From positions 142,786,001-142,850,000 of the forward strand of contig OZ024742.1 in assembly GCA_964016885.1 (NCBI GenBank): a stretch of DNA of 64,000 nucleotides, written 5' to 3'. Below, piece after piece: positions 2,714 to 63,300 of the stretch. The notes under the pieces are model-generated. The model ran no database searches, had not been told where the DNA came from, and worked only from the letters and a program-made list of their open reading frames with translations. The position numbers and the translations under genes are program-made. Position 1 is the first letter of the stretch, and each line of letters begins with the position of its first letter. This DNA is from Eledone cirrhosa (Eukaryota).

Positions 2714-2716
<3 letters not shown>

Positions 2717-2911
2717 CGAAGGAAATGTGGTAAGGAACCAGATGGACCATAACGCACCAAAGTACTCAATACTTAGGGTAATAGAGTGGGTAATAGGAAC
2801 GAGTAGGACCCCGATGGCTGAGCTCAAGCCGTTTCGACGGCTAATTCTGGAGTCCAGAATTAGCCGTCGAAATGGCTTGAGCTCAGCCGTCGGGGTCCTA
2901 CTCGTTCCTAT
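2714..2911 (-). mobile_element. (TA)n-inserted element: ~80-bp tail plus palindrome with 59-bp arms
   Basis: (TA)n on both sides; 2714-2795 recurs inverted at 30304-30385; palindrome 2793-2911. Confidence 0.75.
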
Positions 2912-3136: not shown

Positions 3137-5700
3137 CACACACACCACCACCACCAGTAGTCCCACACACATAGACACCACCACCACCAGTAGTCCAATA
3201 CACATACACACACACCACCACCACCACCACCACCACCACAAGTAGCCCAATACACACACACTACCACTACCACCACTGCCACCAGTAGTTCAATACACAC
3301 ACACCACCACCACAAGTAGCCCAATACACACACCCACCACTACCACCACCACCACCAGTAGCCCAATACACACACACACCACCACCACCAGTAGTCCAAT
3401 ACACACACCACCACCACCACTACCACCAGTAGTCTAATACACACACATACCACCACCAGTACCCAACACACACACACCACCACCACCACCAGTAGCCGAA
3501 TATACACACCACCACCACCACCACCACCACCAGTAGTCCAATACACACACCACCACCACCACCACCACCAGTAGTCCAATACACACACCACCACCACCAC
3601 CACCACCAGTAGTCCAATACACACACCACCACCACCACCACCACCAGTAGTCCAATACACACACATACCATCACCTGTAGTCCAATACACACACATCACC
3701 ACCACCACCAGTAGCCCAACACACACACCACAATCCACCACCACCACCACCACCACCACCACTACCACCAGTAGTCCAATACACACACACCACCACCACC
3801 ACTACCACCACCACCACCAGTAGCCCAGCACACACACACCACCACCACCATCACCACCACCAGTAGCCCAGCACACACACACCACCACCACTGCCACCAC
3901 CACCAGTAGCCCAGCACACACACACCACCACCACTACCACCACCAGTAGCCCAGCACACACACACCACCACCACTGCTACCACCACCAGTAGTCCAATAC
4001 ACACACACCACCACCACCACTACCACCACCACCACCATCACCACCAGTGCCCAGCACACACACACACACCACCACCACTACCACCACCACCAGTAGCCCA
4101 GCACACACACACACACACCACCACCACTACCACCACTACCACCAGTAGTCCAATACACACCACCACTACCACCACTACCAGTAGCCCAACACACACACCA
4201 CCTCAACCACTAGTCCAATACACACACACCACCACCACCAATACCACCACTACCACCAGTAGTCCAATACACACACACACCACCACCAATACCACCACTA
4301 CCACCAGTAGTCCAATACACACACACACCACCACCAATACCACCACTACCACCACTAGTCCAATACACACACACACCACCACCAATACCACCACTACCAC
4401 CAGTAGTCCAATACACACACACACCACCACCAATACCACCACTACCACCAGTAGTCCAATACACACACACACCACCACCAATACCACCACTACCACCAGT
4501 AGTCCAATACACACACACCACCACCACCACTACCACCACTACCACCAGTAGTCCAATACACACACACACCACCACCAATACCACCACTACCACCAGTAGT
4601 CCAATACACACACACACACACCACCACCACCACTACCACCACTAGTCCAATACACACACACCACCACCAATACCACCACTACCACCACTAGTCCAATACA
4701 CACACACCACCACCAATACCACCACTACCACCAGTAGTCCAATACACACACACACACACCACCACCACCACTACCACCACTAGTCCAATACACACACACA
4801 CCACCACCAATACCACCACTACCACCACTAGTCCAATACACACACACACCACCACCAATACCACCACTACCACCACTAGTCCAATACACACACACACACC
4901 ACGACCACCACTACCACCACTAGTCCAATACACACACACACCACCACCAATACCACCACTACCACCACTAGTCCAATACACACACACACCACCACCAATA
5001 CCACCACTACCACCACTAGTCCAATACACACACACCACCACCACCAATACCACCACTACCACCAGTAGTCCAATACACACACACACCACCACCACCACTA
5101 CCACCACTAGTCCAATACACACACACACCACCACCAATACCACCACTACCACCAGTAGTCCAATACACACACACACCACCACCAATACCACCACTACCAC
5201 CAGTAGTCCAATACACATACACACACACCACCACCACCACCACCAATACTACCACCACAAGTAGCCCAATACACACACACTACCACTACCACCACTGCCA
5301 CCAGTAGTTCAATACACACACACCACCACCACAAGTAGCCCAATACACACACCCACCACTACCACCACCACCACAAGTAGCCCAATACACACACCCACCA
5401 CTACCACCACCACCACCAGTAGCCCAATACACACACACACACCACCACCACCAGTAGTCCAATACACACACCACCACCACCACTACCACCAGTAGTCTAA
5501 TACACACACATACCATCACCTGTAGTCCAATACACACACACACCACCACCACCACCAGTACCCAACACACACACACCACCACCACCACCAGTAGCCCAAT
5601 ATACGCACCACCACCACTACTGGTAGTCCATTGTGGACACACACCAACAAGGGTAAGTAATCCTAGTAGTCCAGTAGACGCACACACCAGCACCACTACC
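3137..5700. repeat. Compound minisatellite, ~35-50-bp unit TAGTCCAATA(CA)n(CCA)n
   Basis: Directly visible tandem units; source of the spurious V/W/G-rich ORFs. Confidence 0.95.
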
Positions 5701-24533: not shown

Positions 24534-25019
24534 CGTTCCTCTGATTGAAGAGGATGCCAATGGATTCCACACCTGACGGCTGCCCTCCTGCTCTTAGCTC
24601 TCCAATATGGCGTGTTAGTTTAGATACAAGCAATGCATCTCGGGCACATCTGACGTCACTACCCATATATGGTAAAGCTGGCGGGAAGGGCGTCAATTAC
24701 TTATTTCTAGACCACTATATTTAATATATTTTTTTAACCCTCTCACTTTATTTATATATAGATCAAAATATCAAAATTTCAAGGTGTAAATACAAAAATT
24801 TATTCTTTAGAATGCTAAATTCAAAGTTAACTAATTTACCCATCGTCCTTATATCGCGGGAAATTGCACTTAGCTGGTTGCTATGGGAAGGAGCGGAGGG
24901 GGGGGGGCTTGTATGGCCGGTTTTAAACACGTAAACACGTTCAGGCATGCTTTGCAGTGGTAATTACCTGCCCTCCGGCTGGAATTCTATTGGTATATTC
25001 CCATATTTTCCAGGGAAAA
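24534..25019. promoter_or_regulatory. Bidirectional promoter/5'UTR region between SERBP1 and ZNF367
   Basis: 486 bp between divergent ATGs; TGACGTCA 24651-24658, CCATATATGG 24663-24672, GGCGGGAA 24680-24687, CGCGGGAAA 24855-24863. Confidence 0.75.
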
Positions 25020-25401
25020 ATGCAATTTCAATCATCAACTTCTCAGTTAGGACTTGCGATCCCTCAACTGATGAATGGCCACTTCGCTACCGATGATGAT
25101 GTGCTTATGGTGCCTTGGAAGTGGTCCACAGATAATAATGTATCTGTAGCGCGTATTCAGTTCAGCCTAGATACAGCTTCTCTGGAACAACAAACTGAAT
25201 ATACTAAATGTGAAAGGAAGTGCGTATATGGCGAAAACGAAGATAGTGAGAACTGTGTACGCCGTGGACGTCCTCGAGCAGACAGCATTTCGTCCCTGAT
25301 TTTGGAAGGCTATTCCTCACACAGTGACATACGCTGTCAGTTGTGTTGGCGAGTGTTTCCCAGAGAAAAATCTCTCCAAGCTCATCTCAGGACCCATACT
25401 G
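25020..25401 (+). CDS. ZNF367: Zinc finger protein 367, exon 1
   Basis: PWKW motif and RRGRPRADSISSLILEG...IRCQLCWRVFPREKSLQAHLRTHTG, characteristic of ZNF367; |gtcagt donor; start ATG inferred (25020 or 25071). Confidence 0.92.
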
Positions 25402-26748
25402 GTCAGTAAACTTCCCTTATACGAACAACATACATCAGCATCATTTTTTGTTTTTTTTTTCAATTTTTTTCATTTTTTTATTTTAAATTTCATTCATTAA
25501 AAAAAATATGCTCTGCTTTGATTACTATTTTGAGTTGTAAACATACGTTCTATTTCTGCAATAACCTTTCGGCGTATGTGTGTGTGTATGAATGAATGTT
25601 TATTATTGTATTAAAGGTCCAAATCAATAATATATATATATATAATTTATCTCACATTAAACGAAAATATTCGCAAAATTAATTCAGTGAAAAATCGAAA
25701 TCTGTAATATTCATTTACAGATTGTTTATTCTTTAAATAAACTATTTAGTTATTTTTCTTCATTCGATTTCTTGTAGACTATCGCGCAAAGTGATCTTTA
25801 TATAATAAATTATTTTGTCTTTCCTTTTGGTATTTTTAGCAAACAAACAAAAAACATTAAATTATAGGTTTTGATAATGATTATTTCTCCATGAGATAAA
25901 CTATTAAATTTGGTATTGTTGCTGTAATCCAATTGTTATTGTTGTTGTTATTGTTAATTTTGATCATGTTTGAACAAAACCACTAATACATAGAGGCTTG
26001 TGCGTGGTTGCTTGACTTTGCTAAAACAGCAGCCAAATTTCCCTTTAAATCATACTCGGCCACCACTGAGGACACATTCAATAAAAAATTATGGTATGAT
26101 CATGCCAGCCAGAGCTCCCTCAAATCAGACACCACCACTACCACCAGAAAAGACGATATCATTATTTTAAAGACAACAGTCAAATCTTCAAAATGCACAC
26201 AACACCAGAAAAGACGGTATGATCATCCTTAAAATAACAGCCAAATCTCCCCCCCCCCCCATCAATGCACCACAACCACCACCACTATCATCTTAAACAA
26301 GTATGGGCACATTAGATTGAAAAACAGCAGCCAAATGTCCCTCAAATTACACACCACCATTATCCTCTTTTAAACAAGTAAAGATACATTTGATAGAAAA
26401 AAAGGTATGTAATCTTCAGCCAAATATCCCTCAAATTACACATCCCCACATATTATATTTTAACAAAGAAGGCTACACTAGAATGTTTTTGATTATAGGT
26501 TTGCTCAGAACATCTACTGATCGATCTACTATGATAGATCTTAGCTATTGGCTGATATTATTAAGCTATTCTGTTTACAAATAACTTTGTAACAAATGTT
26601 ACAAATAGTATTTGTTTTGAACAATCATGTGTATATTCATTTGTTGTGTTTGTCTCGTTATTCTTGAACTAATATATATAAAGCGTGAAACTAATAATAC
26701 TCTTTGTACCTCTGTTGTTTCTGGTGTCAAATTTTCACTACGTTTATT

Positions 26749-26841: not shown

Positions 26842-26883
26842 TGAGTGCGTGCTCACTTTGGTGAACCAACAGTAACTTGACGT

Positions 26884-27830
26884 TTGGAGCTGGGTTGTTG
26901 GGTCCTTCACGTCAACAGTTCCAAATGCGAGCTCTGGCTCCTCAACCACCCAGCTTCACATCAAGAGAATGTTGACCTGTTCACAGAGTCTTTCCCCTCC
27001 ATTGCAGTTCCTCTTCCATCAGCGTGGCGATCCCTTCGAGCCCCAATTACTGACCAATCCTTTGTGTCCACCTTATCTAAGTTGGGTAACCTCAAGCAAC
27101 TTTTTAAAAACTTCGAAGTCGTTGAGCCTCACCAAGGTTTTTTTATTCTTCGGAATTATTTGTCAATCCCTAAGTTGTATTTCCTTAGAGTTAGTCTCTC
27201 TTACAAATTCTCGTCGTCTCTCCAACACCTCCTCAGTCAAGACGAACTCTGCATCCCCATTGCGATTCGAGTGGGAGCCGACGTCTGTGGGGGTCTGAGA
27301 TGCCGCTATGGTAGCTCCCTCGATTCCACAGGTTTACATAGTTTGTCCTGTCGCCTGAATGCTAGTCGTTTTGCCCGTCACACCGAGTTAAACCTATTCA
27401 TCAAACGGGCCCTGGCTCGGGTAAATATCCCCACAGTTCTGGACCCGGCTAGTTTATCCAGAAGTGAAGGGACGAGACCAGACGGTCTTACCCTTTGTCC
27501 CTGGGTGAGAGATAGGTGTCTCATCTGGGACGTCACTGTCAGTGACTCTTTTGCTCCCTCCCACATCCCCGGTGGATGTGGGGGGGTCTCTGCTTCCATT
27601 GCCGAACGGGATAAGATTCGGAAATACCTGGATTTACCAAATAATTATTTTTTCCAGACTGGCGTTCGAGACGTTTGGTGGAGTTGGGCCGCTGACAGTG
27701 AAGTTCTTGTCATCATCACTGGCGGCTGCCCCACAGGTGATGCCCCTGAGGGTACCTGGTTATTTCAGCCTTGCCATAACCTGTGGTAATGCTGCGAGCA
27801 GGTTGGCTTGCCTCAAAGTGTGTACTTAAC
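26884..27830 (+). mobile_element. CRE-clade-like non-LTR retrotransposon fragment (end of RT + restriction-like endonuclease), internally deleted
   Basis: VNSSKCEL (RT end), LRNYLSIPKL, decayed zinc knuckle GLHSLSC, RH, RPDGLTL-PW...LIWDVTV; frameshift near 27655. Confidence 0.75.
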
Positions 27831-30200: not shown

Positions 30201-31210
30201 GTGTTGGCTTGCCTCAAAAATTATTAGAGGAAGGCTCCAGCGCCTCTGCGGGGTCTTCCCCCCACCCACCTCTCTCTCTCTCTATATATATATATATGTA
30301 TCATATTATCCACTCTACTACCCTAAGTATTGAGTACTTTGGTGCGTTATGGTCCACCTGGTTCCTTACCACATTTCCTTCGTTATATATATATATATGG
30401 CATAGGTTAATTATAACGTTCGCGAAACTGAAAGTGGATTTCTTAAATTAGTTTCTGGTCGAAATACACTATAGTTTTATTTGCTAGGTTGTTCTAGGAG
30501 CCAGTCACTTTCTGTGAGAAGAAGTACACTCCGGTGTTTTGATCTTGTTCCTTAAAGATCTTCTCGTTTCCTTTGTATGTCCATCAAAGAATTGAGAGAT
30601 GGTCATATTTTCCGATCCTATAATTATATAATTATTGTTTCTTTTTTCAGTATGTTCAAATTAAGCCTTTGTAGTCGTATATATATATATGTGTGTGTGT
30701 GTCATGTTTCTTTATTTGTGTGTGGAACTTCAGGTATCATTGACAAAAATTTCCTGTGGTGGAAATGAAGATATGTTGTCCTATTTACCGGGTTCATTGG
30801 ATTATGGTTAATGTCCATTAGAATCAGTTTAGAGTTCGTTATGAATTCGGTAAATCAGACGAGATATTTTTAAAGGAGACCAATTGACAATGATACGTTT
30901 TTCTATAGCATCTACCTTTCCTTAAAACCAGAGACCATGACTGAACAGCAAGCATATTCTATAAGTAGTCTGACAACTTTTGTATAATATCATGAATGAT
31001 TGTAGATAGATATAATCGTTAGAGCATGGCCCAGTCTGCGAATATTCATAGAGGAAAGTAATGAAAATCTCACTCTAGCATTGTAGTCCCCCATGCAAGC
31101 AATACACTGGGACCCCTACATGCACAACCATAGCATACATAAATTGCCATTAGGACCCTACACGACGGTAGCCCCCGTAGCAACTGCCTAGTTTGCCCAT
31201 ACCTCTAAAT

Positions 31211-38306: not shown

Positions 38307-38640
38307 ATCATCATCATCATCAATATTTTACGTCCGCTTTTCCCTGCTTGCAAGGGTGGGACAGGAACTGATTCTGGCTTGATTTCTACAGCTGGATGCC
38401 CTTCCTAACACCAACCTCATTTAAAGTGAGTGCTGTGTGCTTTTTTTCCGTGGTGCCTACACATCCACTTTGCAGTGGGATGATAGGGACCCCAGTCCTA
38501 TCATCTCATTTCTACAGCTGAGTAAACTGGAGCAATGTGAAATAAAGTGTCTTGCTCAAGGAAACAACACATCACCCAGTCTGAGAATTGAACTCACAAC
38601 CTTTCGATTGCAAGGCCAATGCTCTAACCACTAAGCCAAT
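38307..38640 (-). mobile_element. tRNA-derived SINE, inverted close relative of 37131-37505
   Basis: Reverse complement aligns over head, core and tail. Confidence 0.85.
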
Positions 38641-60397: not shown

Positions 60398-63300
60398 ATC
60401 ATCATCATCACCGTTTTACGTCCGTTCTTCCACGCTAGCATGGGTTAGACGGGTTGTCCTGTTGTGGGCAGTGTCTGGTCGGCTGACCATGCCTTGCTCA
60501 TACAGGAACTGATTTGGCTTGATTTCTACAGCTGGATGCCCTTCCTAACACCAACCTCATTTACAGTGAGTGCTGGGTGCTTTTTCTGTGGCGCCTACAC
60601 GTCCACTTTACAGTGTGGGCTGGGTGCTTTTCTGCTGTGGCACCTCCACGACCACTTTGTGGTGGGGGGTGTGGGGGCATATTGTCTATATGCTTCAGCT
60701 TGTACCCATGGGAGGTCGGATACTCTGTATTACTGTGTGACGCCAGAGGTCACGGTCGTGTCATTGCCTTTGAGAGGTGTAATTGGGTAAGGTCGGCTTT
60801 TATCACCTCATCCCAGGTCATCTTGGGTCTCCCCACTCCGCGGTTTCCATCGACTTCTAGTGCTCTGCACCTTTTTATGCAGCTGTCATCCTTCATACGC
60901 ATCACATGTCCATACCAGCGCAACCGCCTCTCCTGCACACAGCATTTGATTCCTCTTATGCTCAGTCTCTCTCTCAATTCATTTATGCTTTGTCGTTCAC
61001 GTATATTACTGTTACACATCCATCGGAGCATGCAGGCTTCGTTTCTCTCTAATCTATGTAAGTCTTCCACCTTCAGCGCCCAGGTCTCACTACCATGCAA
61101 CATCGCTGTTCGGATACACGCATCATACAGTCTGCCTTTCATTCTGAGAGAGAAGCCTTTTGCAGCTAGCAGTGGTAGTAGTTCCCTAAACTTCTTCCAT
61201 CCCGTTCTTACCCTAGTTATTGTACTTTTTGAACACCCACCTCCGCTGCTAATTCGGTCACCTAGGTAGCAGAAGCTGTCTACTGTTTCTACAGAGCCCT
61301 CCCAGAGATTGGTGGTACTTGTTTCCTGTGGCTGTTTGCTGCTTGCTGTCCCAGCACAGCTGCTGCATGTGAAGCTTACATTCTTAATTAAGCTTCCTGA
61401 GATCCCGTTACATCTGTTGTGTACCCATTGTTTGCATTTGGGGCAGAGAATGGAGTTCCTACCTACACCTTTCCTACATACTGAGCAAGGCCATTTCTCT
61501 GAGGGGATCTGGGTTCTGTTTTCTCTTCTACTTACAAGGACCTTAGTCTTTGTCATGTTGACTTTGAGACCCTTTCTTTCTAGTCCCTGCTTCCAAGTTT
61601 GGAATTTATTCTCTAGTTCTACCATAGATTCAGCTATAAGTGCGAGGTCATCAGCATACAGGAGTTCCCATGGGCATCCGGTCTTAAACTCCTCCGTTAT
61701 TGCCTGCAGGACTATGATGAACAGGAGGGGGCTAAGAACAGAGCCCTGGTGGACCCCAACCTGTACGCTAAATTCCTCGCTATACTCATTGCTAATCCTA
61801 ACTTTGCTGACTGCTCCCCTATACATGGTTTGAACCGCTTTCACAAGCCATTCATCTACTCCTAGTTTTCTAAGAGCCCACCAGATTACAGCACGTGGAA
61901 CTCTGTCAAAGGCTTTCTCAAGGTCGACAAATGTCAGGTAGAGTGGCTTACTTTTAGCTAGGTACTTTTCCTGTAACTGCCTCACAAGGAAGAGGGCATC
62001 AGTGGTCCCTCTTCCTGGTACAAACCTAAATTGCATCTCGTCTAGTTACACCCGGTCCCTAATCAACTGTGCTATAACTCTTTCTGTTACTTTCATGACC
62101 TGGTCCATCAGCTTTATACCTCGATAGTTTCCTCTATCTAGTGCATCACCTTTACCTTTGTAGCAGTTGACAATGATGCTACAGCACCAATCTTTTGGTA
62201 CGACACCTTCTAGTATTACCTGGTTAACAATATGTGGTTATAGTGTGACCTACAGACCCAGATGCCTTCAGCATCTCGGCAGCTATACCCGATGAACCGG
62301 TTGCCTTCCCCATCTTCATATCTTTGATTGCCTTACTTACTACGTTGCTGCTGGCCCCTCTATAGGGTCTACTTGGGGTAGGGTCTCTTCTTCCCATGCA
62401 TTCTCCTCATTTAGTAATCTATCATAATGACTCTTCCATGCATCTTTCTTCTCAGCACTCGTGAGGGCAAGCTCACCTTTATCATTCCGGATACACTTCT
62501 CTCCAATGACATCACAACTCTCTCTGACACACTGCCTCGCAATCTTGAACACCTCCTGTTTCTGGTCCTCACGTTGCAAAACATGCTTGAATTTTCTATC
62601 CTCTGCTTCCCTCCTAGCTAAGTATACTTGTCGCCTAGCTTCCCTCTTGGTCTCTATGAAATGTACCCTGCTCCCCCCATTCTTCCATTCTTTCCATGCC
62701 TGTCTCTTGGCCTTAACTGCCTCATCTACCTTATTGTTCCACCACCAAGTCACTCTCCTCCTGCTTGAGGTCTTACTCCAGCCACAGACCTCATCCGTCG
62801 CCTCTAGTAAGTTATTTTTTAGGAACTCCCAGTTCTCTTCTACATTGAATGTCTCTATCTGTTCTTCTTTACTGTCGTAGACGTTGAGTAAAATATCTTT
62901 AAATCTGTTACTGGTTGAGGGGTCTTTCAGCTTTTAGATCTTTCTTCTCCAGGTTGGCCTGTGTTTCCAGGTTCGTCTAGTTCTGACTGTGAGGTCGCTG
63001 ACAACTAAGTTATGTTGGGAGGTACATTCCTCACTAGGGAAGGCTTTTGTGTTTACGACCGAGACCTTTGGCAGTACTCAGTAATAGAGAAGACCCGCCT
63101 AACCTAAATACAAAGTAAAACCTACTACAGTCAGTAGGCATCTCTAACAAAATACCCCCCCCCCCCCCATCCACACCGCCCCTTTCAATCTTTCAATGTA
63201 AAGTTATGTTGGTGCCACAAAATCCAGGCCGAAACAAATGAGATCGTGTAGGTGTCACGACAAAAAACACACAGTCCACGCTGTAATGTGACCGTGTAGG

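Follow-up and report, generated by a model that had tools for sequence, protein, structure and literature searches.

Structure and surroundings of the insertion

The analyzed stretch of Eledone cirrhosa DNA (64,000 nucleotides of contig OZ024742.1, positions 142,786,001–142,850,000 of the forward strand; hereafter, the window) contains a nearly perfect palindrome. The arms described in the initial annotation, 2793–2851 and 2853–2911 around G2852, were confirmed: they are 59 nt long and 97% complementary. The two reported mismatches are G2831/T2873 and T2815/G2889; both form G-U on the plus strand, and both proved to be of the CpG type, being CpG-to-TpG changes relative to the majority of the closest copies. 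The folding z-score was −16.4, and 0 of 200 shuffled sequences were equally stable, so the palindrome is not a product of chance.

It belongs to a 193-bp unit (2716–2908), the smallest insertion form, in which the 3' parts of two pLTRs stand head to head between (TA)n runs and one of them carries an 80-nt tail. The short arm (2851–2908, plus strand) corresponded, by alignment to a parent copy (L132), to element positions +1 to +58, that is, from the inferred start A to a point designated site A. The long arm (2716–2851, minus strand) matched the parent pLTR and tail from about +3 to +138, comprising the hammerhead 3' half plus the tail; 2716–2792 is the part of the tail beyond the palindrome, and the complete tail spans 80 nt between sites A and B. 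As claimed, the minus arm ends in (TA)n: it extends to 2716 and is followed by (TA)16 (2684–2715). The target run on the short-arm side occupies 2909–2937, and (TA)n adjoined all 30 of the closest copies that were read. At the head-to-head junction (2850–2852), 1–2 nt are common to both arms; G2850 either belongs to the long arm or derives from the cap. The window also contains, at 30305–30383 (plus strand) and again between (TA)n runs, a copy of this Penelope-like element reduced to its tail.

All the motifs named by the initial annotation were located on the plus strand: GAAA (2869–2872), stem III, GTC (2889–2891), and GGGGT (2892–2896). Judged by the fold of the parent, the 3' strand of hammerhead stem II would occupy 2858–2868, and the GAAA core, stem III with its palindromic loop (TGAGCTCA, 2878–2885), the GUC triplet, and the 3' strand of stem I would occupy 2869–2896, mirrored on the minus strand at 2835–2808. 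The predicted cleavage site follows position 2891. Each arm is thus the 3' half of a type I hammerhead, as proposed, but GUC is not found on both strands: the minus arm has AUC, because both mutations strike one stem III pair. The central 16-bp hairpin, taken earlier for stem II, is something else: it consists of the 3' strand of stem II and 5–7 nt of that stem's loop, pairing with their own mirror image.

The 5' core strand of the hammerhead (positions 3–9) was absent from both arms, and the window copy is not a ribozyme. With neither the TATA-like box nor the catalytic 5' half left, it is most likely an ordinary dead insertion. An Rfam scan of the window and nine parent loci returned no hammerhead, only microRNA models on hairpins and (TA)n.

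Several other features were noted in the window. A second long palindrome lies within 1000–1250 (85-nt arms 1045–1129 and 1132–1216, 93%, AT-rich, with outer 24-nt inverted ends); it is unrelated to the Penelope-like family and resembles a DNA-transposon derivative of the fold-back type. Immediately downstream of the insertion, 3140–5620 is taken up by a degenerate tandem array, rich in CAC, whose units measure 38 to 48 bp. Two open frames at 60750–62933 (minus strand) encode a LINE-type reverse transcriptase, RTE-like by eye, and a 302-aa frame at 26881–27789 (plus strand) shows cysteine/histidine and PD..D motifs reminiscent of those at a non-LTR retroelement's endonuclease end. A frame at 24927–25409 (plus strand) ends in a C2H2 zinc-finger motif and is possibly a host gene exon. 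A weak tRNA-like match (29.6 bits) at 38580–38639 (minus strand) is probably a SINE head.

Parent element and its hammerhead

The initial annotation derived the palindrome from Penelope-type retrotransposition, and this was borne out by the finding of a parent, a 3,118-bp unit at locus L142 with a 719-aa ORF encoding a reverse transcriptase (RT) together with a C-terminal GIY-YIG domain; the locus contains a tandem plus an inverted pLTR copy. In tandem parents, the tail continues past the site B point into the 5' region of the ORF. Of 12 tandem loci examined, 9 have the subfamily of the window upstream of the same ORF, and 3 are truncated. The protein carries YRDD and VIY...YIG motifs and had 2,054 homologues at E ≤ 0.001, while Pfam and PDB sequence searches with it gave no match; its assignment to EN+ Penelope-like elements (PLEs) rests on these motifs and on the alignment with Hydra elements. 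Features of the Hydra clade were found in it: DKT, the CxCX5C linker, no CCHH, and CxxC plus CxH near E/N, with (TA)n as the target; the RWK motif of the clade reads RWR. By the motifs described in PMC8557442, the parent is a Hydra-clade Penelope-like retrotransposon, and the unit in the window is a minimal insertion of a new family with a known clade and a known arrangement.

A described member of the clade is Hydra-1_Obim of Octopus bimaculoides, a different family, which shares DKT, CxCX5C, the lack of CCHH, CxxC/CxH, the (TA)n target, and a length of ~3 kb (PMC8557442); its RT stretches in the supplementary alignment of that paper resemble the parent protein by eye. It differs in having RWK where the window's family has RWR. 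Its hammerhead, as given in the supplement (Hydra-1_oBim), has CUGAAGA and a short stem III, unlike the UUGANAA and 6-bp stem III found here. That supplement contained none of the peptide and DNA words tried for the window's family.

A DNA-transposon MITE was considered and rejected, as the ends are unequal, the centres variable, and the parent a retroelement. A non-LTR retrozyme, described in the accessible part of 10.64898/2026.07.22.740005 as tandem short monomers each with a complete hammerhead, was likewise rejected; here there is a single inverted pair and no complete core.

The hammerhead 5' half that the initial annotation expected in non-palindromic relatives is present in 3,381 longer copies, but its core is not CTGANGA. 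Both strict searches for CTGANGA followed by GACGGC gave 0 matches, because the relatives have a U3–A8 swap and read ACCCC-TTGANAA-G. A loose CTGANGA search gave 36 matches, of which 30 were read: these were fillers at junctions or joins with other families, and none was a parent. The fillers and longer arms among these matches led to an upstream pattern with 2,246 matches in older subfamilies. Most of the 30 of these that were read run on into a conserved 3' region, which holds the missing half: the stem I strand ACCCC, the core TTGANAA, G, and the stem II 5' strand. In younger subfamilies, the 3,381 matches contained the full hammerhead motif; L113, L115, and L116 belong to the subfamily of the window.

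The core read UUGANAA in 61 of the 66 distinct cores parsed and CUGAGAA, with a C3–A8 mismatch, in 5. A group of tandem copies of the window's subfamily (L133, L134, L138, L139, and L140) has CUGAGAA, for which weaker cleavage is predicted, yet these copies spread as a group. The hammerhead was the minimum-energy fold in 4 of 7 parents and, when forced, lay within 0.7 kcal/mol in a fifth; the window-subfamily copies L132 and L135 misfold. Across these 7 parent copies, 91% of cells were paired, with no two-sided change among copies so close. The parent copy has the core residues and the three helices of a type I hammerhead and is predicted to be a ribozyme.

The U3–A8 hammerhead is known from PLEs of Schistosoma mansoni (Cervera and De la Peña 2014, PMC4209133), where it is likewise of type I, located in the pLTR, changed from C3–G8 to U3–A8, and provided with a palindromic loop 3. 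Compared with the description given there, the family of the window differs in its full stem III and in a loop II of about 35–36 nt in which the promoter likely lies. Searches based on CUGANGA miss this abundant U3–A8 hammerhead.

Every arm of the insertions crosses the hammerhead cut site; therefore, the templates were uncut. The description of the palindrome as a substrate-only half-ribozyme is fair for the inferred 5' end of the element RNA but not for a transcript of the palindrome itself, which would hide this half in one long hairpin with a predicted energy of −120 to −133 kcal/mol.

Ends, junctions, and extra bases of the insertions

The 193-bp unit is a young dispersed repeat. In the 3.0-Gb genome, 3,482 first-look candidates for it were found, and the 40 that were scored, which had been selected for likeness, were 96–100% identical over the full length. 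Genome-wide, 11,800 palindromes matched the pattern GACGGCTAATT-N0-30-AATTAGCCGTC. Of these, 342 have the exact centre of the window copy; they belong to different subfamilies, and the tail may be on either arm. The palindromes read closely were the first 50 of the 11,800 (L158–L207). There were also 334 tail-only copies and 210 copies in which the tail alone is joined to an arm starting at +1; the latter have no duplicated part, each RNA base being copied once. Both classes fit two primers on one RNA, although some could come from deletion in palindromes.

The arms end in a narrow zone. Although the search pattern allowed it, 0 of the 100 arms in the 50 palindromes passed 12 nt into the stem II loop, and the modes of the ends were at 1, 3, and 6–7 nt. 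Genome-wide, 38,372 arms matched just below the loop, 5,229 reached 14 nt into it, and 3,381 reached the core; longer patterns lose some copies by divergence, too few to explain the drop from 38,372 to 5,229. Contig depth in an independent run stepped up ~20-fold at the arm-end place in loop II and fell ~300-fold after site B. At the other side, the ends are fixed at two sites bounding the 80-nt tail, site A (TTCC|TAT, +58) and site B (CGT|TAT, +138), and contigs of independent runs break into (TA)n at both (L142:3409 and 3489).

Position 7 of loop II is the A of TTAGTCC or TCAGTAC (L142:3349). This A fits the initiator (Inr) consensus, and a TATA-like octamer starts at −29 or −31 from the +1 A in 6 of 6 parents. 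The pLTR promoter would start the RNA at this A within the stem II loop. The arm ends are scattered over 0–12 nt and not piled on +1, so such a model needs trimming or several starts.

A total of 4,427 arms start at the +1 A after a purine that is foreign to the parents, which have T or C there. This purine was G in 83 and A in 17 of the first 100 of the 4,427 matches, and G in 92 and A in 8 of the first 100 of 3,329 matches in an older subfamily. The control two bases upstream gave 6 G, 29 C, and 65 A, and the control at another A gave 30 G, 27 A, and 43 T (Fisher test against the latter, p = 8e-5 for 83:17 and 3e-8 for 92:8); all these ratios are hand counts of the first 100 matches, from one contig. 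From 40 fetched loci, 43 arms had 35 G and 8 A before +1, of which the partner arm or the flank could supply 16 G and 1 A. In the remaining 26 arms, where the partner was excluded as a source, 19 G and 7 A were counted by hand (binomial p = 1e-4 against base composition). In L223 and L242, the extra G immediately follows (TA)n; in L164, L240, and L243, both arms have it. An untemplated 5' G has been read as a copied cap in L1 and SVA (PMC4859970), and the extra G is, by analogy, what a copied cap would give.

All 50 short palindromes had the tail on exactly one arm; a script flagged 48 of them, and the partial tails of L200 and L207 were recognized by eye. Among the 25 long inverted pairs, 24 followed the same pattern, and L093 had no tail. 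In 48 short palindromes, the arm reaching further was the tail arm in 18 and the tail-less arm in 21, with 9 equal. In the long pairs, the tail-less arm was longer by more than 1 kb in 4 and the tail arm by more than 0.8 kb in 6. At the junctions of the 50 palindromes, the overlap was 0–2 nt in 33 and 4 nt in 2, and filler was present in 15. The central loop was shorter than 3 nt in 24 of the 50, 0 nt in 7, and 1 nt in the window, and therefore too tight for a fold-back primer; tight centres could partly be products of later deletion in palindromes. Both arms belonged to one subfamily in 46 of 47 cases, three loci with deletions or duplications being left out.

Arms joined to other hammerhead-bearing families were found in L031, L047, L053, and L040; therefore, two RNAs are sometimes used. 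In L031, L047, and L053 (minus strand, ~1520–1750), arms of the window's family stand head to head with a second family, which is short, ends in (TA)n, and has a minimal hammerhead with CUGAAGA. The same Inr-like AGTTCC start was seen in all three, where the search pattern forced a start nearby. In L040 (minus strand, ~1520–1800), a third hammerhead-bearing family with its own palindrome is joined to a short arm of the window's family.

Proposed integration route and known systems

The parent and its U3–A8 hammerhead, sites A and B, the clustering of ends in loop II, and the extra G, together with the restriction of the tail to one arm and the independence of the arm lengths, make it probable in our view that both ends of a cut (TA)n run prime near the 5' end of the RNA, likely reach the cap, and are joined head to head. 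In this model, drawn from sequence comparison, the element RNA would start at the A in the stem II loop and so carry just the ribozyme's 3' half at its 5' end. Both strands of (TA)n would be cut by the element protein, whereupon site B (+138) would serve as the priming point for one target end and site A (+58) for the other. As RNase H is lacking, a second reading of the RNA would be possible. Each cDNA would run to the end of the template at +1, in many cases adding one base copied from the cap; an overlap of 0–2 nt or a short filler would then join the two 3' ends, and filling-in would follow. The long inverted pairs would result when priming takes place in the RNA's downstream pLTR copy, in which case an uncut hammerhead site would have to be passed. 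The model needs strand displacement for +1 to +58 to be copied twice from one RNA, and it predicts one exact RNA start site.

The published reading of PLE junction palindromes (PMC3846280) is self-priming by fold-back. Applied to the window's family, one cDNA, or an antisense RNA as in the rotifer proposal, would end in the loop, fold, and extend, and the endonuclease would trim one tail. The head-to-head geometry fits it, and arms of one subfamily in 46 of 47 palindromes are also what it predicts. We regard it as improbable for this family, since the centre is too tight for a hairpin turn in 24 of the 50 palindromes, where the loop is below 3 nt, either arm may be the longer by kilobases whichever bears the tail, and some copies have the extra G on both arms; moreover, arms of different families are joined, and the 210 copies mentioned above have no duplicated part. 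The snap-back at stem II proposed in the initial annotation, in which a cDNA extended past stem II would fold there and acquire a mirror image in place of the catalytic half, could draw on the parent's long stem II, which might fold as DNA. Its product, a mirror arm running into the natural 5' strand with the ~36-nt loop kept in the centre, was represented by 0 copies in the younger subfamilies, which refutes the proposal for them; instead, the centres of the 11,800 palindromes fall within the 12 nt at the loop's 3' end, and such an event is extremely unlikely.

Two ends might also prime and be joined as we propose, with the ends in the loop reflecting an RT stall or another RNA cut and the G being a non-templated addition or an overlap. 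The scatter of ends over 12 nt would suit this, as would a stem II loop that is structured and possibly protein-bound. Against it, the excess of G is position-specific with respect to the controls and falls on an Inr-like A with the TATA-like box 29–31 nt upstream in all six parents, and the hammerhead's own cut site, ~40 nt downstream, is crossed by both arms; we think this version unlikely. That the 193-bp palindrome is a fixed non-autonomous unit, MITE- or SINE-like, spreading as such, might seem to follow from the identity of the 40 best matches, but these had been chosen for likeness, and the centre of the window copy is shared by 342 of the 11,800 palindromes. Since this centre occurs in different subfamilies and with the tail on one arm or the other, the centres vary freely, and the ends are the two priming sites of the parent rather than terminal inverted repeats, a fixed unit is very unlikely.

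Returning to joined cDNAs primed from both target ends, we think the balance tips slightly towards this twin priming being the normal route of PLE integration. A single complex would prime once at each of the two sites that bound the tail on one capped RNA, and the second cDNA, run to the cap, would be the inverted pLTR. In the present family, with the promoter in loop II, transcripts would begin with a half-ribozyme unable to cut itself and end with a whole one, and about twelve thousand palindromes would record the start to the base. A genome can gain more than ten thousand nearly perfect 120-bp palindromes as a by-product. How PLEs form inverted repeats and tails was named as a remaining task in PMC8557442. 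Our search of the literature, with subscription papers (e.g., early ones on the Penelope promoter and classification) outside its reach, returned no paper on cap-terminated twin priming or on a promoter inside a ribozyme loop.

Inverted pLTRs, tails, and U3–A8 cores have already been published. In rotifer PLEs, an inverted pLTR beside the direct one, a tail at one end, and a junction palindrome were described and read as self-priming on antisense RNA (PMC3846280). The insertion units of EN+ PLEs (Arkhipova et al. 2013, PMC3846280; Craig et al. 2021, PMC8557442) resemble ours in the head-to-head inverted and direct copies, the tail at one end, the overlap of the pLTR with the 5' region of the ORF, and TATA/Inr-like motifs in the pLTR. 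As far as these two papers describe them, they differ in that here the unit goes down to 193 bp, this being the commonest product, and the tail is 80 nt, not 30–40 nt; furthermore, the junction statistics obtained here favour two joined cap-ending cDNAs over self-priming on antisense RNA.

For Poseidon of Anolis carolinensis, both strands of an AT-rich target were cut and extended in vitro, and the protein started reverse transcription at two sites bounding the tail, with uncut RNA as the template (Frangieh et al. 2024, PMC11167929). The window's family shares with it the two tail-bounding start sites, the AT-rich target, the extension of both strands, and the uncut RNA. Poseidon belongs to another clade, and in the accessible portions of PMC11167929, the steps after priming are left open, the inverted arm is not derived, and no cap is mentioned.

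In the twin priming of L1, which gives 5' inversions, the RNA serves as template for primers at both target ends, and end joining links the resulting cDNAs (PMC4859970, PMC11702581); the 210 non-duplicated copies look like its product. In L1, twin priming is occasional, with internal priming at chance sites, whereas here it is apparently the rule, with two fixed sites and the common part copied twice. The family offers young natural products by the thousand, and three of their signatures favour a route other than self-priming: the single tail, arm ends that vary independently, and the extra G at a fixed A.
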